Numbered from the stretch's first letter, positions 15,052-49,100 are shown. The stretch is 64,000 nucleotides of DNA from Verrucomicrobiota bacterium (GCA_028872915.1 JAGWNY010000013.1:3550-67549); one strand, 5' to 3'. Made by a program: numbers and translations. Notes: generated by a model from the sequence alone, not told the origin.

Positions 15052-15254
15052 GATATGTAAAAGCCACATAGCATAAATGAAGAGAGCCAAAACCGTCAAA
15101 CCAATTGCGGATGCCTTTTGCCCAAAGAAAATCTCCAGATCGCGCGGCTTGACCTTTTCCGGCAACAAGGCACATTGTCCGGCTCGGTTTTTGGAGTTTT
15201 ATCCCGGCATGGCGGAAAACAGCCCGGACGGCCAAAGATTGGACATTTTTAATC

Positions 15255-17090
<1,836 letters not shown>

Positions 17091-17138
17091 CCCAAAATAT
17101 CTCGCGCGGCCCCTCATTTGCCGCTTTACTTCCCGCGC

Positions 17139-18203
17139 ATGAAACAAAAGGCCTATGCCGCCGCCGGTGTGGATATTGACCTGGGCAACCGCCTCAAGGC
17201 AACTCTCCCGCGGCTGCTGGCTTCCACGCGCCGCCCCGGCGTGCTCGGAAAAGTGGGCGGATTTGGCGGATTATTCGCGCTGGACCTTAAAAAATACCGC
17301 CAGCCGGTGCTGGTTTCATCCGTTGACGGCGTGGGCACCAAGCTCAAAATTGCGTTTGCGATGGACCGGCATGACACCATCGGCGCCGACCTCGTCAACC
17401 ATTGCGTCAACGATATCGCCGTGCTGGGGGCCGAGCCGCTTTTTTTTCTCGATTACCTGGGCGCAGGAAAAATGGAACCGCGCGTCTTCAAGGAAATCAT
17501 CCGGGGCTTCGCCCGCGCCTGCGCGCAAAATCGCTGCGCCCTCATTGGCGGCGAGACGGCACAGATGCAGGGCTTTTATCAAGCGAGCGAATATGACGTG
17601 GCCGGCACGATTGTGGGCGTGGTCGAAAAATCGGAAATGCTCAACGGACCCAGGACCGTCCGCCGCGGCGACGTCATCATCGGCATCGCCTCGAGCGGCC
17701 TGCACACCAACGGCTACTCGCTGGCCCGGAAAATTTTCTTTAAAGACCTGGGCCTTACGCCCGCCAGCCGGCTAACCGGATTAAAGGGAACGATTGGCGA
17801 TGAATTGCTCAAGGTCCACGTGAGCTATGGGCCGTTGATTCGGAAATTGCTCAAGCGATTCAATGCCCGCGCCCGGACGGCCGGCGCACGATTCATCAAG
17901 GCGTTCGCGCACGTTACCGGCGGCGGATTTGTGGACAATATACCGCGTGTGCTGCCGCAAAATTGCGGCGTCATCATTCGAACAGGGTCCTGGACCGTGC
18001 CGCCCATTTTTCAACTGATCCAACAAAAAAGCTCCACGCCGCCGGATGAGCTGTATCAGGTATTCAACATGGGCATCGGGATGATCGCCATCGTGCGCCC
18101 CGACAAGGCCGACGCCATCTTGAAATTCGTTCGCGCCCAAAAACATTGGGCATGGATTATCGGTGAAGTCGTGCGAGGAACCGGCCGCGTGCAGTTGGCT
18201 TGA
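17139..18203 (+). CDS. purM: Phosphoribosylformylglycinamidine cyclo-ligase (AIR synthetase)
   Basis: MKQKAYAAAGVDIDLGN..., SVDGVGTKL, DLVNHCVNDI, GGETAQMQG. I prefer the ATG at 17139 over the TTG at 17118. Confidence 0.95.
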   Translation: MKQKAYAAAGVDIDLGNRLKATLPRLLASTRRPGVLGKVGGFGGLFALDLKKYRQPVLVSSVDGVGTKLKIAFAMDRHDTIGADLVNHCVNDIAVLGAEPLFFLDYLGAGKMEPRVFKEIIRGFARACAQNRCALIGGETAQMQGFYQASEYDVAGTIVGVVEKSEMLNGPRTVRRGDVIIGIASSGLHTNGYSLARKIFFKDLGLTPASRLTGLKGTIGDELLKVHVSYGPLIRKLLKRFNARARTAGARFIKAFAHVTGGGFVDNIPRVLPQNCGVIIRTGSWTVPPIFQLIQQKSSTPPDELYQVFNMGIGMIAIVRPDKADAILKFVRAQKHWAWIIGEVVRGTGRVQLA

Positions 18204-23981: not shown

Positions 23982-25217
23982 TCATTGCAGAATAATGACC
24001 CGATAAATTTTACCGGACGAGCTGGCTATGCTGTCCGTTTGCACAAGTATTGGACAGGCGGCAGTCACCGGCGCATCCAGGTTGGACCAAATCGCGCAGT
24101 CCGCAGAAGTCATGTATTGAACTTGATAGTTCCTGCCAATCACGCTGTCCCACGATAAAACCAGCTTGTTGCCTTCCGATTGTTGAACGGCAATCATGAA
24201 CGGCACGGTAACGAGCCGAATCATCTCATTGTAAGTATCCGAAACAATCAGGGAACCGTCCGGCTCAAAAGCTAGGCCATAGGGATTGAAGAAACGTCCC
24301 TGGCCATTGACCCCGTTGGTTGCGCCAAAAACGCCCGGCAGCCCGGAAATGGTTTGAACCAGGCCATTGGTCCCGATTTCGCGAATGATCTGGTTCATCG
24401 AATCAGCCACGAAAAGATTTCCGTTCCGGTCAAAAGTAAGTTCGGCGGGACTGCGAAATCGCGCCGATTGCAGGCTGCCATCCATCGCCCCATCCGCGCC
24501 TGGCAGGCCCGCAAACGTGCTGACATCGCCTGCGGGTGTAATTTCACGTATCGTGTCATTGTTGGCGTCGCTCACAAACAGGTTGCCGTGCGCGTCAAAC
24601 GCCAGACCGACCGGCCCATCGAATTGCGCATTGGCGCCCAGGCCGTCGGCAGTGCCCCATATTTGCGGCTCGCCGGCGAAAGTCGAGATCGCGCCATTGA
24701 AAATTTCCCGGATGCATTGATTACCGCTGTCGGCCACAAAAATGGCTCCATTTGCCGCCACGGCGATTCCGAGCGGCGCGCTAAATACGTTGCTCACGTC
24801 GCCGGCAATGCCGGCAATCGTGGAAACCGCCCCGGCCGGCGTGATTTCGCGAATCGTGTTGTTGCCCGTGTCGCTGACCAACAGATTCCCGTTCGCGTCA
24901 AAAGCAAGGCCGCTGGGCGCGTCGAATTGGGCATTTGTGCCCCGGCCATCCGCGCTTCCTTGAACACCCATTTGCCCGGCAAACGTCGTCACCACGCCAT
25001 TGGTGGTGATTTCGCGGATGGCGTCGTTTTGCGAATCGGCCACGAAAACATTCCCGGCCGCGTCCACGGCAATCGCCGCCGGATCGTTGAACAGCGCGTT
25101 TGTTCCCATGCCATTTGTCGCGCCGCTAACCAGCGCCAGGCCGGCCAAAGTGGTCACGCCGTCCTGCGCGCGCGCCGCCACGGCAGCCAGCAAAATGGCA
25201 GTCAAGACGATCTTCAT
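23982..25217 (-). CDS. Secreted NHL-repeat beta-propeller protein
   Basis: Start MKIVLTAILLAAVAARAQ (signal). Six NHL-like units of the form 'F..P.G.A.D..GN.FV.DS.N..IREI'. The C-terminal ~65-aa module (LVLSWDSVIGRNYQVQY...W..L...KIYRVIILQ) is common at the ends of exported PVC proteins. The ATG overlaps the upstream stop as ATGA (25214-25217). Confidence 0.85.
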   Translation of the reverse strand: MKIVLTAILLAAVAARAQDGVTTLAGLALVSGATNGMGTNALFNDPAAIAVDAAGNVFVADSQNDAIREITTNGVVTTFAGQMGVQGSADGRGTNAQFDAPSGLAFDANGNLLVSDTGNNTIREITPAGAVSTIAGIAGDVSNVFSAPLGIAVAANGAIFVADSGNQCIREIFNGAISTFAGEPQIWGTADGLGANAQFDGPVGLAFDAHGNLFVSDANNDTIREITPAGDVSTFAGLPGADGAMDGSLQSARFRSPAELTFDRNGNLFVADSMNQIIREIGTNGLVQTISGLPGVFGATNGVNGQGRFFNPYGLAFEPDGSLIVSDTYNEMIRLVTVPFMIAVQQSEGNKLVLSWDSVIGRNYQVQYMTSADCAIWSNLDAPVTAACPILVQTDSIASSSGKIYRVIILQ

Positions 25218-28200
25218 TCTCCCCTCCTCATCAATCGCGCCTCCGCCGCCGGTGGCGGAGGCGTTCCATTGTCCAATGGCGGCCGCTGGAACTTCCATGT
25301 TGGTTTCAATTCCGTTCCGGCCCGCGTGATCAAATAGCCGTCGCGCACGCGGACGTTTTGGACCGTGTAGAGCCGCCCATCGCGCTCGTAAAATTTTTCC
25401 ATTTCATCCAGATAGAACGGACGCGATCCGCGCCGTCCAAACACAACCGTTTGGTTGCCGCTTTCGTCCACCACCCGGTCCCGATCCAGGCCGCGCGACA
25501 CCGCCAGAGCCGGCCCGCGAGTGTAAAACGTCGCAATCAGTTTGGGATTAGGCACTGGACTGAAGCCCATCGCGCCGGGCACGTTTTCTGGCGAGATCAA
25601 TTGGATGACGCGCAAGCCATTCCTGCCGTCGGCCACGAGCGCAAATTCCGAGGCGCTGATGGAGCCGACCTGCACCGCGCGCGTGTCGTTGAGTTTTCCG
25701 CCCGCTGTGTAAAGCCGCTCCAACCGCGGTTTTTCCGGATTGGTGATATCAATAAACGCCAGGCCGTCCGGGCCGTCGGCCACGTAGGCATAAGTGCGCG
25801 CCAGGTAAAAACGATGCGCATGTTTGAGTGGCACGAACGCGCCGGGAATCGTTTTCGGCTTCGTTGGGTCGGTGATATCGAGAACCTTGAACCCGTCGTC
25901 ATCGGTCACGAAGAGGTAACGGAATTGCACGCCCACGGCGCGTGGATTTTTCAGGCCGGACGTCACCTCCCCGACAATTCCCGGCGCCGTCAGCGAATCG
26001 TTGTGAAGTCCGACCACAAACAAGCCGTTCCTGCCCACCACATAAAGATTGGTTCCCGCCATGAACGAATCCTCGGCCCCGGTCAGTTTGCCGCCCGGAT
26101 TGAAGCGAATGATTTTTTCGCGGCCAAAAAAGTTGTTTTCAGGATCGCCGTCCAGCAGCGTGCCCACCGTCACCATCACCAGGCCCTCCTTCCGGTCCGT
26201 GACAAATACCCACGCATAAATCGGGCTGACGGCCTGTTCCTCGTTGACAGGGCGGTGCGTGCGCAACGGATCATCGGCCAGCGTGCTCGGCAGCGTCACG
26301 CTCGTCGCATAGGGCGTGGGCACGTCCGTGCGCTGGCCCAATGGCGACACGGGCGCGGACGTGATGCGCTGGGAAAAGCCCTTGTTGTCAACGTTGGCCA
26401 CGTCAAAAACCCTGAACCCGCCGGGACCGTCGGCGGTGTAGAGATATTCACCACGAAGCTGAATGTCAAGAATGTTATCGGCGTCCTCGTGATACCCTTC
26501 CTTCAGCCTTCGCCCGCCGTCCACAAATTTCCCGTAATCATCCGGATACGCGATCTCTTGCAAATGGCTCCCATAAGCCGCCTGCGGATCGGCTTGTTCC
26601 GTCCACGGCACCGCGTCCAGACCGCCTCGGCCCTCCGCCACGTAGGCAAACCGTCCGAAAAAATTCACCGTGCCCGTCCCGAAACCCAGCAGCGAAGCCA
26701 TCCAGGCATTGTTGTCGTTGGCCTTTGAAACATGGCAATCCTCGCAGTTTTTGGTCGTGCCAATGCCGCTGGTCGTATGCATGAAACAGGGATTGTAAGC
26801 CTGCCCGCTGAAACCCTCGGCGCTGATTGTCTGCTGCTGTGAATAGACCCATTCGCGGTTCGCATTTTGCGAACTCACGACCACCGCGGAGGAGGAACGG
26901 ATCACGGCCATGCGATGGTGCTTGTAAGTGGCGTCTATTCCGAGTTGAAAGACGTCGTCGCGCACCACCTGCGGGTTGTAGCTGGTGAAGTTGCGGGTCA
27001 GGATGCCTTCGTATTTGTTGAGCGGCACGCGTTGATTGGCCCGCATCGGCAGATGGCAGCCGAAGCACGACGTTGCCCACGACGTGTGGCAGACTTCGCA
27101 ATTGACGTTGGAATTGTCATGCGCCAGCTTGCGCGGGCATTGGCCCGGCTTCGGAACGGCGCCCCAATGCACGCCGTCACGCAACAGCGTCTTGGCGTAG
27201 GCCGAGGCCGGATCATAGAACGGCGACTTTGGATCAATCGTGTCCACCGTTTGTGGAATTTCCCAGACGAGGTCCGGCGTCATTTCGGAGCGTTGATACA
27301 ACCGCTTTCCAATCCAGAAGAACCGCGGTCCCCACGGCGTGTTGTCCGCGCGCAAATCGTCTTTTCCACCATTGCCGCTCGTGATCAGCGTGGGCCGCTT
27401 TTCAATCGTTCCGTGGCAGTCAATGCACTCAATGGTTGTGGCGGCGCGCGATTCGCCGTAGAGCAGGCCGTTGCCATGCACGTCTCCGTCGAAATGGCAG
27501 TCCACGCACTGCATTCCACGCCGCAGATGCTCGTCTTCCAGATGCACCGCCCTCGCAAATTTGTCGGGGGCGTCAAAGGGAATGATATTCCCCTGGCGAT
27601 CCAGCAGATTGCCCTGCCGATCATGCAAAAATACCGCCCGGAAAATCCAGCCGTGGCCGTGATAATCCGCAAACTGCGTGTCCTTCAACTTGGAATTCAA
27701 CTGAGCCACCTTTTCCAGAAAATCGAGGTTTCCCCAAAGCCCGCGCGCCGCCGCCGCTTCCGGATTATTTTCCACCGACCGTGTCAATTCCGCGGCCGTC
27801 GGGTTTTTCTGCTGTTTCGGATACATCCATTCGCCGTCGGTTTCCTCGTCCCACCATGTATAGCCCAGATACGGATTCACGAACAAATTGCCCTGGTGCA
27901 TGTGACAGACCATGCACTGGCTTGACGGAATGGCGCGCGTGAACTGATGAATGATGGGATGGCCGCGCTCATTCTTGGGGATAGCCTTGTCGCCGGAAAA
28001 ACTCAGGCCCTGGCTGCCGTATTTGTAATACCAGCCCGAATCGGTTGGAGAACGGTCGTTGGCAAAGACCACGTGGCAGGCCGAGCATCCGCTGCTGCGA
28101 TAATCGCCCGGATGATTGTTGGAACCCAGGAAATCCAACAGCGGATCATTCAACCGCGTTTTCTGCAAGTTCAGAAAGACCGGATCGGTGCGCAGCAACG

Positions 28201-29017
28201 TGCCCAGGCCGCGGTCGCTGAGCGCGTGCGCCGGCTTGCCAGGGTCCTCGAACGGGTCCGGGTCGGCCAGCGCGGGCGGTTGTACGCCGCCCCGCTCGAA
28301 GATGCGCAGAATATTCCCCGGCTGGCTCAATTCGAAGCGAGGCAATGGATCAATATAAGGCAGGATGCCATGTTTCCGCGTCATCTCCGGCGTCACGGGT
28401 ACGGGGCTGACCAGCCGTAATGGCGCGCCATCCGCCCCATAAGCCTGGCCGAAGCGGTAATTTTTTTCGGGGAAGGCTCCATTGTTGTAAAGCGCGGCTC
28501 CCCACAGCATGGCGCCGTGGCGCATGATACTGTGGCTGACTTCCTGCACGATCTTGCCGTGGCAAAGGCCGCACGCTTGCTGCGCCACGCGCAGGTCGCC
28601 GGGATTGACGAAGCGAATGAAGGCCGCCGATTCATGGTTCAGCAACACCGACGAGCCATTCGGCAGCGCCGAACTTTGCCAGAAAACGGGATTGCGAGGC
28701 GCCACGTGCGCTTCGCGTTCCGTCAGGCCGGGCGTCGCGTTGCCTCCATGACAATCCGTGCAGCCCAGCACAACATTCGCCGAGTCATGCATCGGCTCGA
28801 TGCCGGCGTGGCATTCAAGGCAACCCTCCGACTTCCGCCACGCGGCGGCGCGCGACTGGTCTATCCAATTGGGTTTGGGCAATTCCACGCGGGCGCTCGG
28901 AGGCAACTCTTTGGGCACGGAAAGAGCCGGCCCGGACCCGTCGGACAAGCCGGCCAGCAGCCGAAAATTCAGCAACAGCCCCAGGCATGCGAGAAATCGG
29001 ATTTCGTTCGTTTTCAT
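25214..29017 (-). CDS. Secreted decahaem c-type cytochrome fused to an LVIVD-repeat beta-propeller
   Basis: 1267 aa with a signal-like N-terminus (MKTNEIRFLACLGLLLNFRLLAG). Ten CXXCH motifs: CLECH66, CTDCH86, CGLCH149, CSACH311, CMVCH368, CVDCH504, CIDCH531, CEVCH640, CFGCH651 and CEDCH758. The C-terminal ~aa 850-1150 carries LVIVD-type signatures (GGFRVFDVANVDN, DGFKVLDITDPTKP, DGLAFIDITNPEKP, NGLRVIQLISPENV). Confidence 0.9.
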   Translation of the reverse strand: MKTNEIRFLACLGLLLNFRLLAGLSDGSGPALSVPKELPPSARVELPKPNWIDQSRAAAWRKSEGCLECHAGIEPMHDSANVVLGCTDCHGGNATPGLTEREAHVAPRNPVFWQSSALPNGSSVLLNHESAAFIRFVNPGDLRVAQQACGLCHGKIVQEVSHSIMRHGAMLWGAALYNNGAFPEKNYRFGQAYGADGAPLRLVSPVPVTPEMTRKHGILPYIDPLPRFELSQPGNILRIFERGGVQPPALADPDPFEDPGKPAHALSDRGLGTLLRTDPVFLNLQKTRLNDPLLDFLGSNNHPGDYRSSGCSACHVVFANDRSPTDSGWYYKYGSQGLSFSGDKAIPKNERGHPIIHQFTRAIPSSQCMVCHMHQGNLFVNPYLGYTWWDEETDGEWMYPKQQKNPTAAELTRSVENNPEAAAARGLWGNLDFLEKVAQLNSKLKDTQFADYHGHGWIFRAVFLHDRQGNLLDRQGNIIPFDAPDKFARAVHLEDEHLRRGMQCVDCHFDGDVHGNGLLYGESRAATTIECIDCHGTIEKRPTLITSGNGGKDDLRADNTPWGPRFFWIGKRLYQRSEMTPDLVWEIPQTVDTIDPKSPFYDPASAYAKTLLRDGVHWGAVPKPGQCPRKLAHDNSNVNCEVCHTSWATSCFGCHLPMRANQRVPLNKYEGILTRNFTSYNPQVVRDDVFQLGIDATYKHHRMAVIRSSSAVVVSSQNANREWVYSQQQTISAEGFSGQAYNPCFMHTTSGIGTTKNCEDCHVSKANDNNAWMASLLGFGTGTVNFFGRFAYVAEGRGGLDAVPWTEQADPQAAYGSHLQEIAYPDDYGKFVDGGRRLKEGYHEDADNILDIQLRGEYLYTADGPGGFRVFDVANVDNKGFSQRITSAPVSPLGQRTDVPTPYATSVTLPSTLADDPLRTHRPVNEEQAVSPIYAWVFVTDRKEGLVMVTVGTLLDGDPENNFFGREKIIRFNPGGKLTGAEDSFMAGTNLYVVGRNGLFVVGLHNDSLTAPGIVGEVTSGLKNPRAVGVQFRYLFVTDDDGFKVLDITDPTKPKTIPGAFVPLKHAHRFYLARTYAYVADGPDGLAFIDITNPEKPRLERLYTAGGKLNDTRAVQVGSISASEFALVADGRNGLRVIQLISPENVPGAMGFSPVPNPKLIATFYTRGPALAVSRGLDRDRVVDESGNQTVVFGRRGSRPFYLDEMEKFYERDGRLYTVQNVRVRDGYLITRAGTELKPTWKFQRPPLDNGTPPPPAAEARLMRRGE

Positions 29018-29020
29018 GGC

Positions 29021-31348
29021 TCAATAGGTAAAAGTGACGGCCAACAGGCCGCTGTAGGGGAAATCATTCGAGTCGCCCGCGAACCCGCTGAAACCCTGCA
29101 CCGGATTGGTATTGGCGCTGTAAATGTCCTCGTAACCGCGGCCGGGAATCAACACTCCAAAGCCCGCCGAAACGATAATATTGTCCGAGAGCAAGGGCCG
29201 GTATTGGAAGCCCAGGCTCAAGTCCCAGCCCACTTCGTCATGGATTTTTGCCGTGAACAGCGCCGTCTTGAGCGGGTCGGTTTCAGCGAACAAAATATAA
29301 TTCGCGTTGAGAAACGATGTCAGTTTCGGCGTCAGGTCAAATTCGCCGCCCAAGCCAAAAATATAGACGCCAGGATTCACAAAATTTGCCTGCCCCTCCG
29401 TCTTGCTGGTGCGCAGGTCCGGGAACAGGCTGTCCGGCGTCTTGAGGTTGATCAACGTACCCCCCAGATTAAACCCTTGTCGCGTCCAGAAACTGAACGG
29501 TCCGCCCGTAAAGTTCGGATTGTCCACAATCGAATCGAAACCCCGCGCCGTGCCGTCCTCCGCGTGGCTGTCGCCCGACGCATAAAAAAACGATGCCTTA
29601 TACCGCGCCCAATTCAAGTCATACGAAACCTCCAACGCCGCCATCTGCGCGTTGATGTCCACCGGCCGGCCGGCCAGTTCGTTGAAATGATCATGTCCGA
29701 ATGCCTCGTAAAATTGATGCGAAACGTTCACGCGGCCAATGTGCCCATCCCCGCCCCAGCCCAGGTAATACACCGTCACGTCATGCGGCTTGACTGATCC
29801 GAAAGGTTCCGGGCGGACCAGATCGCCATTCTGATCGTAGTGCGTGGCAGCGTGATCGAAATTCGCCAGCACGCTCCATTCCGCCGTGTATCCCGGCCAG
29901 ATAAAGTCCTGCCGGTAAAGATTCGCGATGAACACGTCCTGGCCGCGGCTGTCGAAGGTGTTGAGTTGCGAATCCGTGTTCTTCTCCCGCATGTCGAACG
30001 CCGCCAGATTATATTGGTAACGGTTGTCGTCCCAGTTCCCAAAGAGCCGGACGCCGAGATTAATGTCGTTGAATAAAAAACCCCGAAAATCCGCGTTGAA
30101 TGGCTGGTAACCCATGCGCAGCGACATGAAATCGTAATTGTCGGAGAGATCAAGCAGATGCACCTCCACGAAACCTTGTTGCAATGCCATGAAAGTCTTC
30201 GTGCGATCCACATGCGACGTGCCCCGATAACTGCCGGCCTGGCCGACCCCATTGTCGTTCAGGAACCCCGTTATGTCCGTCGGATTTGAAATGCCGCCGT
30301 TCCCCCCATAACCCGATGCTCCGCCGGCGCCCAGCGAACCCAGCGGCGAGGGCGACACCACCCCTGATTCCTCCGTTTGCAGATAGTTCACGTTAAAGAC
30401 CGGCTCCAGGTTTATCGCCCAGGTCACAGGCCGAAACGAGGTATCGCCCTGAAACAAGTCCGCGTCAAAGCCAAGATAATTTTGAACGCTGATTTCCTCG
30501 CCATCGCCATAAAAGTCATATTCGCCGGGCAACGCCCCGCTCACCCCGCTGGCCGTCGGCACCCGCCGGAATTCCGTCACCGTTTCCGCCGACGCCGTGA
30601 GGTCGAGGAAAATGTCCTGTCCGATGATGGGCGCGTCGCCTTTGAGCACGCTCTGCCGGTAAGGCGCCCAGGGCGCCGGACTCGGATTCTCGTAAGGCTG
30701 CTCGGTCACGCCGCTCGTGTAACGATGCCACGGCACAAATCCGATGCGCCAGCGGTTGGGCCGCGGCGCGGCGTTCGTTGGATAATCGCCCGGCTGCAAT
30801 GAATACTTCGGGTAGCCGAAGTTCGGATAAATTTTCAACTCGCGCTGCGTGTTCCATCGCGGCAGCTCCAGCCGGTTGGTCAGCGGCTCCATGTTATAAT
30901 CGCTCCGCGCCGGGGGCGGGGGCGGCTCCAATTTATCCAGTTGCACGTCCTGCCGCGGCAGCGCCAAGCCCGGCGGAATGGGCGGCGGCGTGAAAACCGC
31001 CGGCACAGGCGGCTCATGGAAGAGGGCTGTCGGCGCATTCGTGGGCGGACGCAAAAAAGCGCCCGGGTCCGGATCGAAAATTTCCGGCGACAGCGGCGGC
31101 GCACCCGTGCTGGCGATCACCCCTTCCCTCCAACGAAAATCCGTCTGTGGCGGTGCCGGCAATTCCAAGGTGTTCGGATCAGGATTGAAAACCGCGGGCG
31201 ACAACGGCGGCGTGTTTGTTGTAACCGCCTGATACGGTTTAAGGCGATTCGCATCATTCGTATCCGTAATCCCGCCGCCGTAATCCCGCAACGCACACAG
31301 CGACAAAACCGTCCCCGCCAGAATTGTAAGGAACAGCCTTGCTGACAT
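29021..31348 (-). CDS. Predicted outer-membrane beta-barrel protein with Pro-rich N-terminal extension
   Basis: 775 aa with a signal-like N-terminus (MSARLFLTILAGTVLSLCAL), then a ~160-aa Pro-rich region with a repeated PPLSPxxFxPDP motif. The following ~600 aa are rich in Gly/Asn/Asp/aromatics with an alternating beta-strand-like pattern. The C-terminus ...GLLAVTFTY ends in an aromatic residue, as in OM barrels. The stop lies 3 nt before the cytochrome ATG. Confidence 0.7.
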   Translation of the reverse strand: MSARLFLTILAGTVLSLCALRDYGGGITDTNDANRLKPYQAVTTNTPPLSPAVFNPDPNTLELPAPPQTDFRWREGVIASTGAPPLSPEIFDPDPGAFLRPPTNAPTALFHEPPVPAVFTPPPIPPGLALPRQDVQLDKLEPPPPPARSDYNMEPLTNRLELPRWNTQRELKIYPNFGYPKYSLQPGDYPTNAAPRPNRWRIGFVPWHRYTSGVTEQPYENPSPAPWAPYRQSVLKGDAPIIGQDIFLDLTASAETVTEFRRVPTASGVSGALPGEYDFYGDGEEISVQNYLGFDADLFQGDTSFRPVTWAINLEPVFNVNYLQTEESGVVSPSPLGSLGAGGASGYGGNGGISNPTDITGFLNDNGVGQAGSYRGTSHVDRTKTFMALQQGFVEVHLLDLSDNYDFMSLRMGYQPFNADFRGFLFNDINLGVRLFGNWDDNRYQYNLAAFDMREKNTDSQLNTFDSRGQDVFIANLYRQDFIWPGYTAEWSVLANFDHAATHYDQNGDLVRPEPFGSVKPHDVTVYYLGWGGDGHIGRVNVSHQFYEAFGHDHFNELAGRPVDINAQMAALEVSYDLNWARYKASFFYASGDSHAEDGTARGFDSIVDNPNFTGGPFSFWTRQGFNLGGTLINLKTPDSLFPDLRTSKTEGQANFVNPGVYIFGLGGEFDLTPKLTSFLNANYILFAETDPLKTALFTAKIHDEVGWDLSLGFQYRPLLSDNIIVSAGFGVLIPGRGYEDIYSANTNPVQGFSGFAGDSNDFPYSGLLAVTFTY

Positions 31349-31401
31349 CAGCGAATAAGAAATTGTTTATTTTCAAAAATCAACCCTTATCTTGATGCCC
31401 G

Positions 31402-32982
31402 GTGAAACGCATCGTGGGCATTTTATCCGTCGCCCTGTTGGCCGCCCGGCCCGCCGCCGCCCAACTCACGGTAGCCGATGTCCAAACCATCATCGCACAA
31501 GCCGTCAGCCGCGCCGTCGTCATCACCAACTCTCCCCTGGCCGCCAACGCCGTCATCGCGGTGACCGACCGTGAAGGCTGGGTCCTGGGTGTCTGGGCGC
31601 TCAACGCCGGCTCCTCCACCAACGACCCGCTTGTCGCCGACGCCCTCGCAAAGGCCGCCAGCGCCGCCTTCCTGAGCAGTGACAATAACGCTTTCTCGTC
31701 CCGAACCGCCGGTGACATCGTGCAACAGCATTTTCCGCCCGGCGTCGCCAACACCGCCCCCGGCCCGCTCGTGGGCGTGAATTTTTCAAGCCTCGCCTTT
31801 TCCGACATCAATAAATTGAAAGGACCGGGCAGCACGATCACCTACGGTCCGTCGCCTGGAACAAATCTGGTTCCCGTCCCCACTCCCATCACCGGCGGTC
31901 TTGCCGGCACGCCCGGCGGCCTGCCGCTTTACAAAAACGGCCTTCTCGTCGGCGCCATTGGCGTTGCCGGTGACGGCCTCCAACCCACCGACATTACTCC
32001 GCCTGTGATTGCCAATCCCGATGCCAATGAAGACGTCGCGCTGGCCGGGCAAGCCGGCTACCAGCCCTCCGACACCATTGTCGCATCGCATGTTTTGATT
32101 AACGGCATCCGGCTCGAATACATCGAAAGCACCACGCAGACCGGCGCCATGATTCCCTTTGCCAGCCTGCCCGGCACAAACGTTGCCCCGTATTCCCCCA
32201 TTGCCTCGCCGCCTCCCTTTCCGTATCCCGTCCTCATATTGGGCGGTGAAATCGGCCAATTGCGCCAGCCCATCGTTTCCGATCCGTCCACGGTTCCCCT
32301 GCCCAACGGTGTCGCCCGCCTCACCGCCGCCGAAGTCACCAATATCATCGCCGCCGCCGCCAATCGCGCCCGCACCACCCGCGCCGGCATTCGCCTGCCA
32401 CGCGGCCAGGTTGCCCAAATGTTCATTTCAGTCGTCAGCAATCCCAATTCAAACGGCGTGCCGCCCATCGTCCTGGGCACTTTCTGCACCTCAACCAACG
32501 CCACCCGCTTTAGTTGGGACGTCGCCGTGCAGAAAGCCCGCACCGTTCTGTTCTTCTCCGCCACCAATCGCGCCTTTTCCGCACGCACTGTCGGCTTTCT
32601 CTCCGAAAGCACCTATCCGCCCGGCATTGATGGGACCCAACCGGGCCTGTTTTTCGGAATGCAGGAGCGCTTTTCCATCATCACGCCCACCTCGATTCAG
32701 GCCACCAATCCCGTCAACGGCGCCGTCTTCACAACTTCCACCAACGTCAATCCCAACCTGCCCGACGGCATGACCATCTTTCCCGGTGGCTTTCCCCTTT
32801 ACCGCGACGGCGTCCTCGTGGGGGCCATCGGCGTTAGTGGCGACGGCGTGGACCAGGACGATCTTGTGGCCGCCAGTGGCGCCGCCGTCTTTCTGCCGCC
32901 CGTCCCCATTCGGGCCGATCAAATGCAATATCGCAACGTGCGCCTCCCCTTCGCCAAGTTCCCCCGCAACCCCGCCCTATGA
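31402..32982 (+). CDS. Secreted protein with two GlcG/HbpS-like (DUF336) domains
   Basis: GTG start and signal peptide MKRIVGILSVALLAARPAAAQ. There are two copies of the DUF336 core: GGLPLYKNGLLVGAIGVAGDG (~aa 170-190) and GGFPLYRDGVLVGAIGVSGDGVDQDDLVA (~aa 455-480). Each is preceded by an A.TDREG...G-like N-terminal half. Confidence 0.8.
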   Translation: MKRIVGILSVALLAARPAAAQLTVADVQTIIAQAVSRAVVITNSPLAANAVIAVTDREGWVLGVWALNAGSSTNDPLVADALAKAASAAFLSSDNNAFSSRTAGDIVQQHFPPGVANTAPGPLVGVNFSSLAFSDINKLKGPGSTITYGPSPGTNLVPVPTPITGGLAGTPGGLPLYKNGLLVGAIGVAGDGLQPTDITPPVIANPDANEDVALAGQAGYQPSDTIVASHVLINGIRLEYIESTTQTGAMIPFASLPGTNVAPYSPIASPPPFPYPVLILGGEIGQLRQPIVSDPSTVPLPNGVARLTAAEVTNIIAAAANRARTTRAGIRLPRGQVAQMFISVVSNPNSNGVPPIVLGTFCTSTNATRFSWDVAVQKARTVLFFSATNRAFSARTVGFLSESTYPPGIDGTQPGLFFGMQERFSIITPTSIQATNPVNGAVFTTSTNVNPNLPDGMTIFPGGFPLYRDGVLVGAIGVSGDGVDQDDLVAASGAAVFLPPVPIRADQMQYRNVRLPFAKFPRNPAL

Positions 32983-33032: not shown

Positions 33033-35153
33033 TCATTTCGCCTCCATTTTCCAGATGCCGTTCCAATTTGCCGGCGGTTTGGCTGACAGTCCGGCGCAAC
33101 GGGAGGCGAGGATTTCGCTCGGTCCATCGGAAAATTCCTCCGCCACCTTTTCAAATTCCATCCGCCCCGCGGCGAATTTGCCGGCGGCGTATTCATCATA
33201 GACTGCCTTGTAACGCGCGCACAGCGCCGCGTAGTTTGGCGGTGAAGAGGGATTTTGGCGCTCGAACAATTCCACCGGTTCAGTCTTGCCCTTGACAATA
33301 ACCCGGTCCACCAGCCGGTGCTCCGCTTGCCTGCTGAATTGCCCAAATGTCTCCCCCGTCACCAGCAGCCGCACCCCGTAAAATTTTGTCAGCGACTCCA
33401 CCCGCGCCGCTTCGTTTACCGCGTCGCCGACAAGGCCGTAATCGAGCCGCAGCGCCGAGCCTTTGTTGCCGACCAGCACGCTGCCGCTGTGCAGCGCCAC
33501 CCCGTAGCCGAACCATTCCTGAATTTCCGCCGGCAGCCCGCCGCGCAAATCCTCCATCGCCCGAATCAATTTCATTGCCGCGCGCTCCGCCCGGTCGGCG
33601 GCGTCCGGTTGCTGTTGCGGCGCGCCCCAGTAGCTCAAAAACTGGTCGCCGAGAAAATGCTCCAGGTTTCCGTCCTCGCTCATGATCGCGCCGGTCTGCG
33701 CCTCGAACACGCGGTTGAGCAAATCGAACATGCCCTGCGGGCCGAGCCGCTCCGCCAGCGGCGTGGAATTTCGCAAATCGGTCAGCAGCAGCTGCACCTC
33801 CGCCCGGCGCGGCCGCATTGATCCGGGATCGGCGAGCACCGCGTCCAGCACGCGCGGCGAAAAATAGAGGCCCATCGTGTGCCGCAATTTCATCCGCTCC
33901 AGCCGCTCGGCGATAAAGTCGTAACCCAGCGCGCCCACGCCCGTGACGACCAGCACGACCAGCGGGCTGACCACGGGAGTGATGAGGTTCGCGTGGTTGA
34001 ACAAAAATTTCGCCGCCAGGCAAAGCGTCACGCCGGAGCCGAGAATCACCAGCAACCGTTTGACCGGCGCGCGCATCCATTGGCAGAGCGCGGCGGCAAA
34101 AATTCCGGCGAGCGCGACGATCGCCCCGCTCGCCGCCGGCGGCGTTTCATGGAGAAATTCACCGTGCAACGCGGCGTTGATGATTTGCAGGTGAATCTCC
34201 GGTCCGGACATCGCCCCGCGAAACGGCGTCTGATGCAGGTCTTGAAATAGAATCGCCGTCGGCCCAATCAGCGCCAGCTTGCCCGCGAAAAATTTTCCGT
34301 CCCCGAAATTTTTGTCCCAAATTTCCGGCGTCAGCACGTCGCCGACCGAAATCACAGGCCATGTTCCCGGAGGCCCGCTAAACCGGATGATGGGATGCGC
34401 GCCAACCGCCGGAATCCTTTCCGCCGCGCCGAATTTCTCCAAAGCCCGGGCCGTGAACGATTCCACCACCGCGCCCGGCGGCGCGTCCAGCACGTCGCCC
34501 AATTCATGGTTCGTCACCCGGAAACGCGCGCTGCGGAACACGCCGTCGCCGTCCGGCCAGATGTTGACGAAACCCACTCGCGGGTCCAGCGCCGCCGGAT
34601 GACCGGGCGTGTCGGGAATCAGGTCGCCGCACGGCGCCGTAAACTGGCGGGGAACGCCCCGGTCCGTCTCGCCGGCGTTGAACACGCCGCCGATGACGAC
34701 GCGGTTCGAATCAGCATCCAGCGCGGCCCGCAGTTCCTCGTCGCCCTCCGCTTTGGCCGCAAACACGAGATCAATCGCCACGGCCTTTGCATGGGCATCC
34801 ACGAGTTTTTCAACCAGCCGCGCCCACACCGCGCGCGACCAGGGAAAATTGCCCTGCAAATCCCGCAGCACCGGCTCGCCCTTCAGGTCGGCGGCGCTGA
34901 ACGCCGATGACCCGTAAACCGGCTGGTCAATGCCGATGATGACGAGGTTGGTGTTGGCCGGCGTCAGGCGCCCCGTCCGGGCGAAGAAATCCTGCACGTA
35001 ATTTTCCGCCGCTGCGAGCGGCGCGGCCAGCGGGGCCGGGCCGCGGAAATCCACCGCCAGCACGGCAAGCGTGACCAGCGCGCAAAAGCCGGCCATCACC
35101 GCCGCGCGGCGTTGAGGGACTGGTCCAGGCATGACGTTTGCCATGGTTGACAA
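33033..35153 (-). CDS. CHASE2-sensor adenylate/guanylate cyclase
   Basis: 706 aa. An N-terminal TM segment, a periplasmic CHASE2-like region (VIIGIDQ....W.R...A.L...L...A.AV..D..F), three TM helices, then a class-III cyclase domain (LLLTDLRNSTPLAERLG...FLGDQFLSYWGAP...GDAVNEAARVES). Confidence 0.85.
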   Translation of the reverse strand: MSTMANVMPGPVPQRRAAVMAGFCALVTLAVLAVDFRGPAPLAAPLAAAENYVQDFFARTGRLTPANTNLVIIGIDQPVYGSSAFSAADLKGEPVLRDLQGNFPWSRAVWARLVEKLVDAHAKAVAIDLVFAAKAEGDEELRAALDADSNRVVIGGVFNAGETDRGVPRQFTAPCGDLIPDTPGHPAALDPRVGFVNIWPDGDGVFRSARFRVTNHELGDVLDAPPGAVVESFTARALEKFGAAERIPAVGAHPIIRFSGPPGTWPVISVGDVLTPEIWDKNFGDGKFFAGKLALIGPTAILFQDLHQTPFRGAMSGPEIHLQIINAALHGEFLHETPPAASGAIVALAGIFAAALCQWMRAPVKRLLVILGSGVTLCLAAKFLFNHANLITPVVSPLVVLVVTGVGALGYDFIAERLERMKLRHTMGLYFSPRVLDAVLADPGSMRPRRAEVQLLLTDLRNSTPLAERLGPQGMFDLLNRVFEAQTGAIMSEDGNLEHFLGDQFLSYWGAPQQQPDAADRAERAAMKLIRAMEDLRGGLPAEIQEWFGYGVALHSGSVLVGNKGSALRLDYGLVGDAVNEAARVESLTKFYGVRLLVTGETFGQFSRQAEHRLVDRVIVKGKTEPVELFERQNPSSPPNYAALCARYKAVYDEYAAGKFAAGRMEFEKVAEEFSDGPSEILASRCAGLSAKPPANWNGIWKMEAK

Positions 35154-35202
35154 ATTTCCGCCGCAGGTGTAAAAACGCCGCCAAGATTAGCCGGAGTGTC
35201 GA

Positions 35203-36024
35203 ATGAAATCAATTTTTCTTGTCTTTGGACTGGCCCTGCTCGTCCGGTTTTCCGCCGGGGCGGCGCCGCTCGCCGAAAGCACCTTCACCGAGATCATCAA
35301 CGATGTCGCCACCGTCGCCGCCACCGGCGCCGCCAGCCCCGCCAAAGTCAAAGAGGTTCTCAAAGCGCCCCAGCGCGTCCGCACCGGTCCGGATTCCCGC
35401 GCGGAACTGGTCGCGCCCGACCAGACCATCACCCGCGTCGGCGCGAACACCATTTTTTCCTTCGCTGACAGCGGGCGCACGTTGAACCTCGAACAGGGCA
35501 ACCTTTTATTTCACGCGCCCAAGGGAATTGGCGGCGGCACGATCAAGACCGCCGGCGCCGCGGCGGCCGTCCTGGGCACCACGCTTATCGTATCGGCCAC
35601 GGCGGACGGCGGCTTCAAGGTGATTCTGCTCGAAGGCTCCGGCGCCGTGACGTTGCCCAATGGAACGTCCGCCACGCTCCACGCCGGCCAGCTTGTGTTC
35701 GTGCTGCCCGGCGGAACGCTCAGTCCCGTGCTGAATATCAACCTGGGCCGCCTTGTCGCCGGCTCGGCCCTCGTCAACGGGTTTCCAGACCAATTAACCT
35801 CGCTGTCTCTCATCAATATCGCCATTCTTCAGCAAAACAAGCTGTTCAAATCCGGCGAGGCAACGGACACCGGCCTGCCGCCGGACGTTTTTATTATTCC
35901 CCCATTCCCCGGCAACGGATGGAACGCCATTGACCATGGCGCTTATCAAACGCGCGTGCCGCCGCCAACGCCGCCGCTTCCACCCACGCAATTCCCGCCG
36001 AACTCTTTCAAGGGTCCCCCGTAG
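35203..36024 (+). CDS. Secreted FecR-domain protein
   Basis: Signal peptide MKSIFLVFGLALLVRFSAGAA. FecR-type core VRTGPDSRAELVAPDQTITRVGANTIFSF...LNLEQGNLLFHAPKG...TAGAAAAVLGTTLIV. Pro-rich C-terminal tail. Confidence 0.8.
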   Translation: MKSIFLVFGLALLVRFSAGAAPLAESTFTEIINDVATVAATGAASPAKVKEVLKAPQRVRTGPDSRAELVAPDQTITRVGANTIFSFADSGRTLNLEQGNLLFHAPKGIGGGTIKTAGAAAAVLGTTLIVSATADGGFKVILLEGSGAVTLPNGTSATLHAGQLVFVLPGGTLSPVLNINLGRLVAGSALVNGFPDQLTSLSLINIAILQQNKLFKSGEATDTGLPPDVFIIPPFPGNGWNAIDHGAYQTRVPPPTPPLPPTQFPPNSFKGPP

Positions 36025-36035
36025 AAATTCATGCC

Positions 36036-37058
36036 ATGCGAACCCCGATTTGTCTTCTGGTAGTTGCCGCGGCCCTCTTCATTTTGCCAGCCGCGCCCGC
36101 TCAACTGCCCGCCACCCCGGCCAGCCGCCAGGTCGAAACGTTTCAGCAACGCAACGAATTTCAACCCGCCTTCTTTGCCACAAACGTTCCCGCGCTTTAC
36201 CCCGGCGAAACCAGCGACGTCGGCCCGCAATCCGTTGTGGAAATCAAGCCGCGCCGCACCTGGATTGAAGCCTATGCCGACGAGCAGTATTTTTACACGG
36301 ACAACGTCCTTCTGGCCGATCATAACAAGCAAGGCGCCAATGTGCTTGTCAGCACCATCCAGGCGGCCGTCGCGCCAACCCCCTTCGCCGTCTGCGGCGG
36401 CCAACTCGCGCCGCGCCTGGGCTTCCAGCAGCAATGGTTCAATTTTGGGCTGGCCGATTCCGGCACGGTGACGGTGATCAATCCCCTCACCGGCACGCCC
36501 CAAAACGTCAACTTGAACACCTTCGACTTCAGCGTCTCCACCGTTTTCGCCGACCTGACTTGGCGGCGCAATAACTGGCTGCTCACCCTCGGAGCCGATG
36601 CCCGCTGGCTGCTCGACTCCGGCAATTACAACCAATTCTACCGCGAATTCGTTCCACGCTGGACGATTGAGCGTGAATTTCCCCTCACCCAAAAGACCGG
36701 CCTTGCCATCGGCTACGACGGCGATTATCGCGACACCCAAACCCAGTCGCCCCCGGCGGGCGTCGGCGAGAACTATAACGATCGCACCGACCACAGCCTC
36801 TATGTCGTCGGCAGTTGGCGGCTGTGCCGTTACGCCGTCCTGCAGCCGTTTTACCGCTTTGAATACTCCCACTACACTCGCGTCAGCCGCGACGATTTCC
36901 TCAATTCCTTCGGCCTCGCGTTGTACTGCCCCGTCACGAAAAATGTCACGCTGCGCGCCTTCGTTGGCTACGACAACCTGAACACGGACGGCCAGTTCGC
37001 CCAAAACTATGAAATGCTCGATGCCGGCGGCGGGCTGAACCTGTTTATCCGGTTCTGA
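36036..37058 (+). CDS. Predicted outer-membrane beta-barrel protein
   Basis: Signal peptide MRTPICLLVVAAALFILPAAPAQ. Alternating aromatic/polar pattern, many Y/F/W-Gly-Asp/Asn turns, and a terminal ...GGGLNLFIRF ending in Phe. Starts 12 nt after the FecR gene. Confidence 0.6.
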   Translation: MRTPICLLVVAAALFILPAAPAQLPATPASRQVETFQQRNEFQPAFFATNVPALYPGETSDVGPQSVVEIKPRRTWIEAYADEQYFYTDNVLLADHNKQGANVLVSTIQAAVAPTPFAVCGGQLAPRLGFQQQWFNFGLADSGTVTVINPLTGTPQNVNLNTFDFSVSTVFADLTWRRNNWLLTLGADARWLLDSGNYNQFYREFVPRWTIEREFPLTQKTGLAIGYDGDYRDTQTQSPPAGVGENYNDRTDHSLYVVGSWRLCRYAVLQPFYRFEYSHYTRVSRDDFLNSFGLALYCPVTKNVTLRAFVGYDNLNTDGQFAQNYEMLDAGGGLNLFIRF

Positions 37059-37077: not shown

Positions 37078-38208
37078 TCAAACCAGCTTCTTGAGCCGGG
37101 TGTCCTGGCCGAGTTTTCGCACCAATTCCTTCACCTTTTGCGCCTGGCTTTTATGCGCGAGCAAAACTGCGTCGTCCGTCTGGGCCAGGATGGCGTCGCG
37201 CAGGCCCACCACGGCAATCAGCGTCCGGTTTTTCGTTCGCGCGTCAAAAATAATATTCCGCGCGGCGTCCACGTGAATGAAATCGCCCACCGCGCAATTG
37301 CCTTCCGCATCCGCTTTCAGATGATGTGCCAGGGCCGTCCACGAACCCAGGTCGTCCCACTCGAATGCCCCGTCGGCCACCACCACGTTTTGCGCGTGCT
37401 CCATCAGCGCATAATCTATCGAAATTTTCCTGATATCCGGATAATCCTTCGCCAGCACCCGCGCCAGCCGGGCCGGCGTGGCCGCCGCCTGAAACCAGCG
37501 CTGGCAGGCGGCGTGCATCTCCGGCTGATGCTTTTGCAGGCCCTCGGCAATCGTCACAAACGACCACACGAACATCCCTGCGTTCCATCGGTAGCCGCCG
37601 CCGTTGACGTATCCCAGCGCCGTTTCGAAGTCCGGCTTTTCCACGAATTGTTCGGCCTTGAAAAAAGCCGTCTTGTATTTCCGGGCGCCTTCAGGCGGAG
37701 GCAATTCCGACCCCACCCGAATGTAACCGTAGCTCGTCGCCGGCTCCGAGGGCTTGATGCCAATGGTCACGATGGCCCGGCCGCGGGATGCCAGGTCAAA
37801 GGCGTCGTTCAACACCTGCTGAAATTTTTTTGCATCCGGAATCACGTGGTCCGCCGGCAGCACCGCCATGACGCCCGTCGTGGACCGCGCGCCCACGAGC
37901 GCCGCGCCCAGCGTCACTGCGGCACACGTATCCCGGCCCGCGGGTTCGGCCACGAGATTGGCGGCGGGAATTTTCGGAAGTTGTCTGCGCACTTCGGGCA
38001 ATTGCGCTTCATTGGTGATCACCAGAATATTTTTCAGCGGCGCCAACGGCGCCACGCGCTCCACGGCTTGCTGTAAAAACGATTTCCCGCCCAGCATCGC
38101 CAGCAACTGCTTCGGCTTTTTCTCGCGGCTCAACGGCCAGAACCGTTCACCCTTGCCTCCGGCCATGATCACGGCGAAACGGTCCCGGTTGTCGGATTTT
38201 ATTTTCAT
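37078..38208 (-). CDS. manC: Mannose-1-phosphate guanylyltransferase (GDP-mannose pyrophosphorylase)
   Basis: 376 aa. AVIMAGGKGERFWPLSR..KPKQ nucleotidyltransferase motif and the layout typical of the ManC/CpsB N-terminal domain. Confidence 0.8.
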   Translation of the reverse strand: MKIKSDNRDRFAVIMAGGKGERFWPLSREKKPKQLLAMLGGKSFLQQAVERVAPLAPLKNILVITNEAQLPEVRRQLPKIPAANLVAEPAGRDTCAAVTLGAALVGARSTTGVMAVLPADHVIPDAKKFQQVLNDAFDLASRGRAIVTIGIKPSEPATSYGYIRVGSELPPPEGARKYKTAFFKAEQFVEKPDFETALGYVNGGGYRWNAGMFVWSFVTIAEGLQKHQPEMHAACQRWFQAAATPARLARVLAKDYPDIRKISIDYALMEHAQNVVVADGAFEWDDLGSWTALAHHLKADAEGNCAVGDFIHVDAARNIIFDARTKNRTLIAVVGLRDAILAQTDDAVLLAHKSQAQKVKELVRKLGQDTRLKKLV

Positions 38209-38257
38209 GGTTTCGTCAGGCGATTATATTTTCAGGCACGAGAGAAGAACAGGCGAA

Positions 38258-48847: not shown

Positions 48848-48962
48848 ACCGCGCCGCATTAAACAGAAAGCCGCGGCAAATGCCAATCCCGTCATTTCAA
48901 TAAAAGGATGCGAATCGTCACACAAAGAGATAGGGTCACAAGGCAAAAAATGAAAAGGAGCC

Positions 48963-49100
48963 ATCCATGAGGGTGATCAGACGGGAACGCCGGGCGGCCT
49001 GGAAAATCTTAAAATGGTTGAGGAAAATCGTCCCGAACCCCGTCCGGGCGAATTACTGGTCAGGATTCAGGCCAGCTCATTGAACTTCCATGATGATATG
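48963..49100 (+). pseudogene. Remnant of the N-terminus of a zinc-type/quinone oxidoreductase (MDR family)
   Basis: In frame with the 49014 ORF: ...GGLENLKMVEENRPEPRPGELLVRIQASSLNFHDDMVALG matches the GroES-like N-terminal ~45 aa of MDR/QOR enzymes. The similarity then stops, and the ORF ends at 49226 after 70 codons. Confidence 0.35.

Follow-up and report, generated by a model that had tools for sequence, protein, structure and literature searches.

The window analysed here is a 64,000-nucleotide stretch of DNA from a Verrucomicrobiota bacterium (GCA_028872915.1, JAGWNY010000013.1:3550-67549). It contains three coupled open reading frames (ORFs) on the minus strand with a high GC content at third codon positions, which encode a putative outer membrane (OM) beta-barrel protein of 775 amino acids, a multihaem cytochrome of 1267 amino acids fused to a beta-propeller, and an NHL beta-propeller protein of 411 amino acids (Table 1). 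Direct reading of the gene junctions bore out the tight coupling reported in a preliminary description of this locus. Three nucleotides separate the stop codon of the barrel gene from the start codon of the cytochrome gene (...TAT TGA gcc ATG AAA...), and the end of the cytochrome gene overlaps the NHL gene by 4 nt (...AGGAGGGGAGA ATGA...), with a Shine-Dalgarno-like AGGAGG preceding the overlap. The longest form of the NHL ORF begins at 25298; the ATGA start at 25217 is backed by homologues and independent gene calls. Judged by eye, the N-termini of all three products resemble Sec signal peptides, in agreement with the earlier reading. The first gene encodes an AlgE-like OM barrel of ~18 strands with a conserved, proline-rich periplasmic arm, and its expression is firmly tied to that of a Sec-exported protein with ten c-type haem sites in its first ~770 residues and a beta-propeller in its last ~400.

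Table 1. Features at the barrel-cytochrome locus and in its immediate neighbourhood (positions in the 64,000-nt window)
Feature	Position	Strand	Basis
Barrel protein gene, 775 aa: signal peptide, Pro-rich arm, and 18-strand barrel	29021..31348	-	ORF, AlphaFold2, Foldseek
Pro-rich N-terminal arm of barrel protein, residues ~27-243	30620..31270	-	Pro content, low pLDDT, invariant residues
Beta-barrel domain, residues 244-775, 18 predicted strands, C-terminal ...TFTY	29024..30619	-	DSSP, pLDDT, Foldseek
Most conserved block of barrel protein, residues 601-660, non-strand loop	29369..29548	-	Block conservation, predicted secondary structure, invariant residues
Secreted decahaem cytochrome fused to LVIVD beta-propeller, 1267 aa	25214..29017	-	ORF, ten CXXCH, homologues
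Haem domain, residues ~60-770, ten CXXCH as 3+2+2+2+1	26708..28840	-	Motif conservation, profile comparisons
C-terminal beta-propeller, residues ~850-1195, LVIVD/choice-of-anchor-B type	25433..26470	-	PF08309, TIGR04312 in relatives, pLDDT
Secreted NHL beta-propeller, 411 aa, with ~70-aa C-terminal domain; accessory, lineage-restricted	23982..25217	-	Pfam NHL, ATGA overlap
AT-rich 53-bp divergent intergenic region, barrel gene to HbpS-like gene; presumed shared promoter region	31349..31401	.	Sequence read
Secreted HbpS-like protein, 526 aa, PF03928 (two matched stretches), divergent to barrel gene	31402..32982	+	Pfam E 1.3e-17; independent gene calls agree
CHASE2-adenylate/guanylate cyclase	33033-35153	-	Pfam
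FecR-domain protein	35203-36024	+	Pfam

The barrel protein has 1844 homologues, every one of them labelled hypothetical, and, as the preliminary description had anticipated, scans against Pfam and NCBIfam yielded no family match for it. AlphaFold2, supplied with 76 homologues, predicted a signal peptide, a disordered segment (residues ~27-243), and 18 beta-strands within residues 245-775, mostly at predicted local distance difference test (pLDDT) values of 70-90. In a Foldseek search of the PDB with this model, AlgE occupied the top 16 places (E 1e-14; template modelling score 0.60-0.69, normalised to the target AlgE), followed by other porins of 16-18 strands, including the 18-strand MOMP and Occ porins. 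These matches, together with the aromatic C-terminus, substantiate the earlier assignment of the protein as an OM beta-barrel and point to an 18-strand fold as in AlgE, albeit in a model of moderate confidence. At the sequence level, a search of PDB sequences with the barrel family profile found nothing, the window protein did not match Alginate_exp (PF13372), and only one of 22 diverse relatives did so (E 0.0038).

The preliminary description had compared the locus with Mtr/Pcc-type conduits. In a conduit of this type, part of the decahaem domain would be threaded through the barrel and conduct electrons across the OM, while the propeller, with or without the NHL protein, would be exposed at the surface and bind insoluble or polymeric acceptors such as Fe or Mn oxides or humics in anaerobic respiration. 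The adjacency and translational coupling of a barrel gene and a decahaem gene speak for such a conduit. However, the barrel domain comprises only ~530 residues and 18 AlgE-like strands, MtrB is not among the top 50 Foldseek matches of the model, and no window protein matches the Pfam or NCBIfam families MtrB/PioB (PF11854), TIGR03016, DmsE/MtrA (TIGR03508), or MtrC/OmcA (PF22113). The threading of the cytochrome through the barrel thus found no support. In contrast, the remark that the layout departs from that of Mtr and Pcc systems held true, considering the sparse haems, the fused propeller, and the lack of matches to the Mtr families.

Proline accounts for 22% of residues 40-240 of the barrel protein versus 4.5% elsewhere, in keeping with the extension noted earlier. 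This arm is disordered when modelled alone (pLDDT <50), yet its invariant residues among 76 sequences include P48, F54, D57, F91, R132, R164, R199, W200, W207, and Y210. Disorder combined with many invariant aromatic and arginine residues is a pattern typical of partner-induced folding. Block 601-660 showed conservation values of 0.80 and 0.76 compared to a mean of 0.60 among 22 diverse sequences; in the model, it forms short helices and loop rather than strands, which makes it a candidate for a constriction or for a loop that docks the partner. CXXCH is absent from the barrel ORF, which sets it apart from Cyc2-type proteins with a haem in the barrel protein itself. A barrel homologue in one distant locus (L081) lacks the Pro-rich arm. 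Two 'xNPDPx' repeats in the arm were considered as markers of NHL presence, with one repeat per propeller, and were dismissed for want of any correlation.

The ten CXXCH motifs claimed for the second protein were confirmed at residues 66, 86, 149, 311, 368, 504, 531, 640, 651, and 758. With 23 Cys and 38 His in 1267 residues, only ~0.01 such motifs would be expected by chance, and no other ORF in the window bears CXXCH. All ten are invariant in 71 close homologues, and in an alignment of 16 sequences from several phyla they are kept wherever covered, one relative being truncated at the N-terminus. Apart from the motifs, nine His residues (77, 104, 357, 374, 492, 497, 514, 633, and 747) and Met165 are conserved across phyla. 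The retention of ten motifs alongside ten candidate distal ligands fits ten six-coordinate electron transfer haems, although as evidence for an all-six-coordinate relay this match in number is weak. A relative of 1648 amino acids (P0254) possesses 18 extra N-terminal CXXCH motifs ahead of the ten-haem and propeller unit, amounting to 28 in total.

ExtM (NF040943) is the only named family matched by all 16 relatives tested (best E 1e-27), via residues ~490-770 with haems 6-10 and profile positions ~245-503 of 599; the window protein scored 53.7 bits and its relatives at most 93 bits, compared to an equivalog cutoff of 800. Searches of PDB sequences found nothing with the single sequence and NrfB at E 0.31 with a narrower profile; with the cross-phylum profile, residues 58-157 were NrfB-like (E 3.8e-5) and residues 496-555 matched a dihaem stretch of ~60 residues in the octahaem nitrite reductase TvNiR (E 1e-4). 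Judging from these short and weak matches, the haem domain lies outside the characterized multihaem enzyme clades (NrfA, octahaem nitrite and tetrathionate reductases, HAO, and MccA), membership in which the preliminary description had named as a refutation, and has no relative of solved structure beyond weak local sequence similarity. Its AlphaFold2 model (pLDDT 25-50) was unusable.

The short match to the dihaem region of NrfA and octahaem nitrite reductase bears on the possibility that the cytochrome is a periplasmic multihaem enzyme. It would reduce or oxidize a small soluble substrate, for instance an oxyanion or an N- or S-oxide, with the propeller or one of the haems as the catalytic site and the AlgE-like barrel as a substrate-specific porin. 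AlgE-like barrels are anion channels. Moreover, conservation of the protein is enzyme-like, including long haem-free inserts and the propeller (e.g., the SRGLDRDRVVDESGNQ motif), and the cluster of ExtM in Geobacter includes the small porin ExtI, needed for selenite and tellurite reduction. On the other hand, the similarity to NrfA and TvNiR is confined to those ~60 residues, the cytochrome has no CXXCK motif, the conserved His and Met residues equal the haems in number and leave no obvious open coordination site, the propeller lacks invariant His or Cys residues for a metal centre in the cross-phylum alignment, and the relative fused to an 18-haem array looks more relay-like. In this specific form, we consider the enzyme a rather unlikely explanation. 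In the broader form offered in the preliminary description, in which an OM channel accompanies a redox protein of the periplasm, it fits the data at least as well as the main reading given there.

The C-terminal part of the cytochrome matches LVIVD (PF08309; 56 bits, cutoff 20.2), and seven of the 16 relatives match the choice-of-anchor-B family TIGR04312; with the NHL match described below, both propellers of the preliminary description were recovered. This part was modelled with confidence from the 71-sequence alignment (pLDDT 85-95). Foldseek with the cytochrome model retrieved generic propellers only (WD40, YWTD, BamB, and NirN), a result that reflects the propeller alone because of the low pLDDT of the haem domain. 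A search of the available literature for fusions of multihaem and LVIVD domains found nothing relevant. Lipoprotein anchoring was ruled out, since the 'LLGC'-like strings lie inside ordinary hydrophobic cores of signal peptides of the signal peptidase I type without a lipobox; a plausible lipobox was seen in some distant cytochrome relatives only. At the extreme C-terminus (window positions 25214-25240), a conserved basic motif, [DE]RLxRRG[QEK], follows a variable Pro-rich linker in the loci surveyed (L001-L080). It takes the form GRLRQRR in loci labelled Luteolibacter or Akkermansiaceae, and most loci labelled Chthoniobacterales have a Pro-rich tail instead. This motif is possibly a sorting or docking tag; that RLMRRG is a mere by-product of the NHL ribosome-binding site was ruled out by its presence in loci without NHL.

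The third gene product matches NHL (PF01436) with 101.9 bits (cutoff 20). Its gene was found in 17 of the 67 loci with a downstream flank (~25%), and in 18 of 20 scored cases its ATG overlaps the cytochrome stop codon by 4 nt. NHL is an accessory, lineage-restricted subunit and not part of the core. In seven loci (L025, L027, L028, L033, L039, L049, and L053), whose labels read Chthoniobacterales, Spartobacteria, or unclassified Verrucomicrobiota, the place of NHL downstream of the cytochrome gene is taken by one or two genes for CysJ-like FAD/NADPH flavoproteins, a gene for a large multi-helix membrane protein, and a ~320-aa gene.

Cytochrome relatives number more than 8000 in a protein collection clustered at 90%, those with names all being 'hypothetical protein' from Verrucomicrobiota, and a search with the haem domain (residues 30-800) retrieved 2622 clusters formed at 50% identity. 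Scanning one genome per species, we found the cytochrome of the pair in at least 596 species, mainly Verrucomicrobiota (57-87% identity), whose record labels include subdivision 3/Limisphaerales, Chthoniobacterales (including Candidatus Udaeobacter), Opitutaceae/Opitutae, Verrucomicrobiales, and Akkermansiaceae. Full-length relatives with 40-47% identity and the same ten-haem and propeller arrangement occur in metagenome-assembled genomes (MAGs) of Eremiobacterota (Candidatus Xenobia) and of a bacterium labelled Pseudomonadota. Verrucomicrobia bacterium IMCC26134 (CP011265, locus L055) is a cultured carrier with a complete genome.

Neighbourhood counts were based on 80 fetched loci (L001-L080), and neighbours were identified by clustering ORFs of the 80 loci and checked by tblastn. 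By tblastn, the barrel gene adjoins the cytochrome gene in 60 of the 62 loci with a usable upstream flank; ORF clustering recovered it in 55 of the 62. The distance from barrel stop to cytochrome start is mostly -4 to +5 nt, and the pair is kept in L081 and in L082 (the Eremiobacterota MAG), where barrel identity is only 28-31%. Thus, of the co-conservation expected for all three genes, the barrel-cytochrome part stood, whereas that of NHL did not. The two exceptions, L007 and L014, carry the cytochrome without a barrel within 10 kb, as might be expected if the two proteins had only their operon in common, the barrel being a general porin and the cytochrome a periplasmic protein with an unrelated role. 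Given adjacency in nearly all loci and across phyla, with overlaps of 4 nt or gaps of 1-5 nt, we regard such a lack of joint function as extremely improbable.

In related genomes, the pair is accompanied by genes for putative inner membrane electron transfer proteins. The families comprise a membrane-anchored FAD/NAD(P)H and 2Fe-2S protein (c7), whose flavin module resembles the reductase domain of the flavohaemoprotein Hmp (E 7e-81); a cytoplasmic protein with cyclic nucleotide monophosphate (cNMP)-binding domains and a 4Fe-4S dicluster domain (c3); a five-helix membrane protein of ~280 amino acids without a Pfam family (c8); a decahaem protein anchored by a single helix (c4); and a c554-like cytochrome (c5). 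At least one module gene lies within 10 kb of the pair in 24 of the 37 well-flanked loci of at least 20 kb. In 24 loci, c3, c4, and c8 are all present; they may lie on either side of the pair, and neither their order nor their orientation is fixed. This proximity of the pair to an inner membrane electron transfer module favours a trans-envelope redox role.

An alignment including the L081 and L082 homologues revealed four near-invariant His residues in c8, forming two pairs 14 residues apart on two helices. By analogy with cytochrome b and NOX-type proteins, we infer that this arrangement corresponds to the classical transmembrane dihaem b pattern, which makes the c8-type protein a candidate new dihaem-b transmembrane electron carrier. 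Examples are L052:4939-5778, L010:3114-3950, L081:3197-4267, and L082:13748-14593 (~280-356 amino acids), and the gene is placed between those for the cNMP-binding Fe-S protein and the anchored decahaem. In L081, the pair is neighboured by homologues of c3 and c8 and by a 1296-aa protein (L081:4278-8168) that unites three FHA domains, 4Fe-4S and pyridine-nucleotide-disulfide-oxidoreductase domains, and nine CXXCH motifs in one polypeptide. In L082, BLAST confirmed the c8 homologue, and a multihaem gene and a cNMP-binding fragment were called nearby.

The linked module also helps to weigh two of the alternatives. Oxidation of a donor outside the cell (e.g., Fe(II) or humics in reduced form), with electrons passing inward as in Cyc2 or MtoAB, is conceivable since multihaem chains are reversible, iron oxidizers with small barrels such as Cyc2 exist, and a haem with His/Met ligation by Met165 could have a high potential. 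However, the inner membrane module ends in an NAD(P)H/FAD protein, inward flow via the dihaem membrane protein would oppose the membrane potential, and the barrel carries no haem motif, so that electron uptake seems very unlikely. As for the threaded conduit, linkage to an inner membrane decahaem and a c554-like cytochrome, the surface-type propeller families LVIVD and choice-of-anchor B, and the presence of NHL propellers beside the proposed porin-cytochrome clusters EET1 of Acidobacteriota and that of Tenderiales are in its favour. Unlike a quinol dehydrogenase, though, the linked module would be fed by NAD(P)H, which points away from energy-conserving respiration. The haems are also sparse (10 in ~700 amino acids), and the family occurs in orders with MAG labels including Candidatus Udaeobacter and Luteolibacter, lineages that are largely aerobic. 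Together with the fold of the barrel, this makes threading of the Mtr/Pcc type quite unlikely.

On the other side of the pair, a divergent gene encodes an HbpS-like protein. Members of this secreted family of ~530 amino acids (c2) are present in 28 of the 37 well-flanked loci, usually head-to-head with the barrel gene. Consensus scans for promoters and terminators returned no more sites than in shuffled sequence. The CHASE2-cyclase and FecR genes beyond it are neighbours in 7 of the 37 loci, in the closest relatives only, and their tie to the barrel-cytochrome system is tentative; since the linked module includes an Fe-S protein that binds cNMP, regulation of the system by the cyclase is conceivable. 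In the closest relatives, L083 and L084 (cytochrome 78-87% identical), independent gene calls gave the order c4, a 333-339-aa gene, FecR, CHASE2-cyclase, HbpS-like gene, barrel, cytochrome, and NHL. The window matches this order as far as the ~340-aa gene, so that this gene, FecR, and the cyclase (33033-37058) separate the HbpS-like gene from the position of the anchored decahaem in the relatives. Synteny ends at 37078-39688, where a 376-aa ORF and a Wzy_C O-antigen-ligase-type gene replace the anchored decahaem; by eye, and from its translation only, the 376-aa ORF looks like a sugar-nucleotide transferase.

Elsewhere, the window carries ordinary chromosomal genes, among them those for tyrosyl-tRNA synthetase, malate dehydrogenase, trigger factor, ClpB, biotin carboxylase, chorismate synthase, and tryptophan synthase alpha. 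A 947-aa protein (60484-63327) with a very long array of ankyrin repeats (Ank_2 E 7e-77) and a tetratricopeptide repeat (TPR_6) is unusual for a bacterium. Two ORFs at 15249-17147 (632 aa) and 47870-48964 (364 aa) have a coding-like composition without a Pfam family. The region 5252-7975 encodes a GH35 beta-galactosidase that has additional carbohydrate-binding domains, and 45641-47707 a DUF5696 protein, which both fit a verrucomicrobial lifestyle of polysaccharide degradation.

Taken together, we propose that the pair is the outer module of a widespread, uncharacterized trans-envelope multihaem electron export chain in which the barrel serves as a channel or dock, a reading whose chances of being right or wrong we judge about equal. 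The barrel would stably bind the cytochrome-propeller protein at the inner side of the OM, holding it by the Pro-rich arm and the highly conserved barrel loop. Electrons might enter at the N-terminal, NrfB-like trihaem end, coming from periplasmic or inner membrane multihaem cytochromes of the kind encoded nearby in related genomes, along with the NAD(P)H flavoprotein, the cNMP-binding 4Fe-4S protein, and the four-His dihaem-b-like membrane protein. Because the linked module includes an NAD(P)H flavoprotein, the flow would most likely run outward from cytoplasmic NAD(P)H. Electrons moving outward would go downhill with the help of the membrane potential, so that the chain would presumably deliver reducing power rather than conserve energy. 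At the barrel and propeller, the electrons may be handed to an extracytoplasmic oxidant that either traverses the barrel or is bound there; the barrel would act as a channel or dock, as proposed for Geobacter ExtI, and not as an Mtr-type sheath; the NHL propeller would be an optional add-on subunit. For the oxidant, we can offer only a guess, Fe(III) or organic redox-active (humic-type) compounds, based on the link to ExtM, the HbpS-like neighbour, and the soil, peat, groundwater, or freshwater labels of many MAG records. Of the redox module put forward in the preliminary description, an envelope redox module of unusual architecture is therefore retained and the Mtr picture is not, the barrel being a small AlgE-like channel equipped with a tethering arm.

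Several points weigh against an export chain of this kind. We infer the complex, its topology, and the direction of electron flow. None of the five module families, nor any other cytochrome c gene, was found in the 64-kb window, whereas the closest relatives carry an anchored decahaem ~8 kb from the pair. LVIVD and choice-of-anchor-B propellers are typical of cell surface proteins (PMC2447325), which would fit an exposed rather than a periplasmic location. Sequence identity of 57-87% across verrucomicrobial orders and 40-47% across phyla extends to the haem-free segments, a level seen more commonly in enzymes than in proteins that merely conduct electrons. Lastly, a small segment bearing haems could conceivably still fit into an 18-strand barrel.

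A more specific form of the export chain is possible, though we would sooner expect it to be wrong: the pair might be the terminal module of an unrecognized, non-respiratory trans-envelope reductase, in which a flavoprotein that oxidizes NAD(P)H and an Fe-S protein gated by cNMP pass electrons to a NOX-like dihaem membrane protein and onward across the periplasm, via ~25 c-type haems, to the barrel-docked decahaem-propeller. As part of the same tentative proposal, the external substrate might be, e.g., Fe(III) to be assimilated, quinones of humic matter, or a cofactor that extracellular enzymes use, in many soil and freshwater Verrucomicrobiota and in other phyla.

The barrel-cytochrome pair is real, non-trivial, and apparently undescribed. 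Verrucomicrobiota are among the most abundant bacteria in soil and freshwater, and most of their extracytoplasmic redox chemistry is unexplained. The pair is far more conserved than the porin-cytochrome clusters proposed so far for this phylum, yet it is unnamed and its barrel has no Pfam family. If NAD(P)H reducing power is indeed exported to the surface, this would represent a new way for heterotrophs not regarded as 'electrogenic' to reduce iron, humics, and other external oxidants, with a bearing on iron acquisition and carbon turnover in soils and peat.

With Shewanella MtrCAB and Geobacter OmaB-OmbB-OmcB, the locus shares adjacent genes for a barrel and a multihaem protein, co-conserved here, as well as the number of ten haems found in MtrA and MtrC and, in related genomes, linkage to periplasmic and inner membrane multihaem cytochromes. 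However, MtrB has 26 strands compared to 18 in the window barrel, and the window cytochrome, with haems spread over ~700 amino acids, a fused propeller, and no lipoprotein signal, is unlike both the compact MtrA/DmsE (~330 amino acids) and the surface lipoprotein MtrC/OmcA. AlgE (PDB 3RBH and 4AFK) is the best structural match to the barrel domain, yet sequence identity is ~10%, no polysaccharide synthesis genes are linked to the pair, and the 220-residue Pro-rich arm is unique.

Within the same phylum, clusters with the same proposal of a barrel beside multihaem cytochromes have been described: porins of at least 20 strands with a periplasmic octahaem (He et al. 2017, PMC5615132); EET3, with a nonahaem, an MtrA-like octahaem, and a 26-strand MtrB-like porin; and EET4, with a 583-aa OcwA-like nonahaem, a 286-aa octahaem, and a TIGR03016 porin (both bioRxiv 10.64898/2026.05.27.727921). 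The preliminary description had allowed for an overlap with such porin-cytochrome pairs. Their component descriptions rule out identity, as none of these families match the window proteins, and the locus is a different system and, judged by species count, a more widespread one. In EET1 of Acidobacteriota (porin-NHL-cytochrome c) and the uet cluster of Tenderiales, a secreted NHL propeller was proposed as a scaffold, and, as in the window, its gene accompanies those for a multihaem cytochrome and a porin. EET1 has an MtrB-like porin, however, and at the window locus NHL is optional and a second propeller (LVIVD) is fused to the cytochrome.

The nearest named relative of the haem domain, albeit a partial one, is found in the ext cluster of Geobacter sulfurreducens (ExtHIJKL-MNOPQS), with ExtM (GSU2935) and the porin ExtI, for which a role as channel or dock has been proposed. 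Both systems combine a small porin of non-Mtr type, large multihaem proteins, and a membrane module with b-type and Fe-S components. They differ in that ExtM has 12 haems and no propeller, whereas the window protein has ten haems and a propeller, and in that the ext membrane module consists of a Rieske protein and cytochrome b, while that of the window family comprises the NAD(P)H flavoprotein and the cNMP-Fe-S protein. ExtM is itself uncharacterized, and by the equivalog cutoff the window protein is not ExtM.

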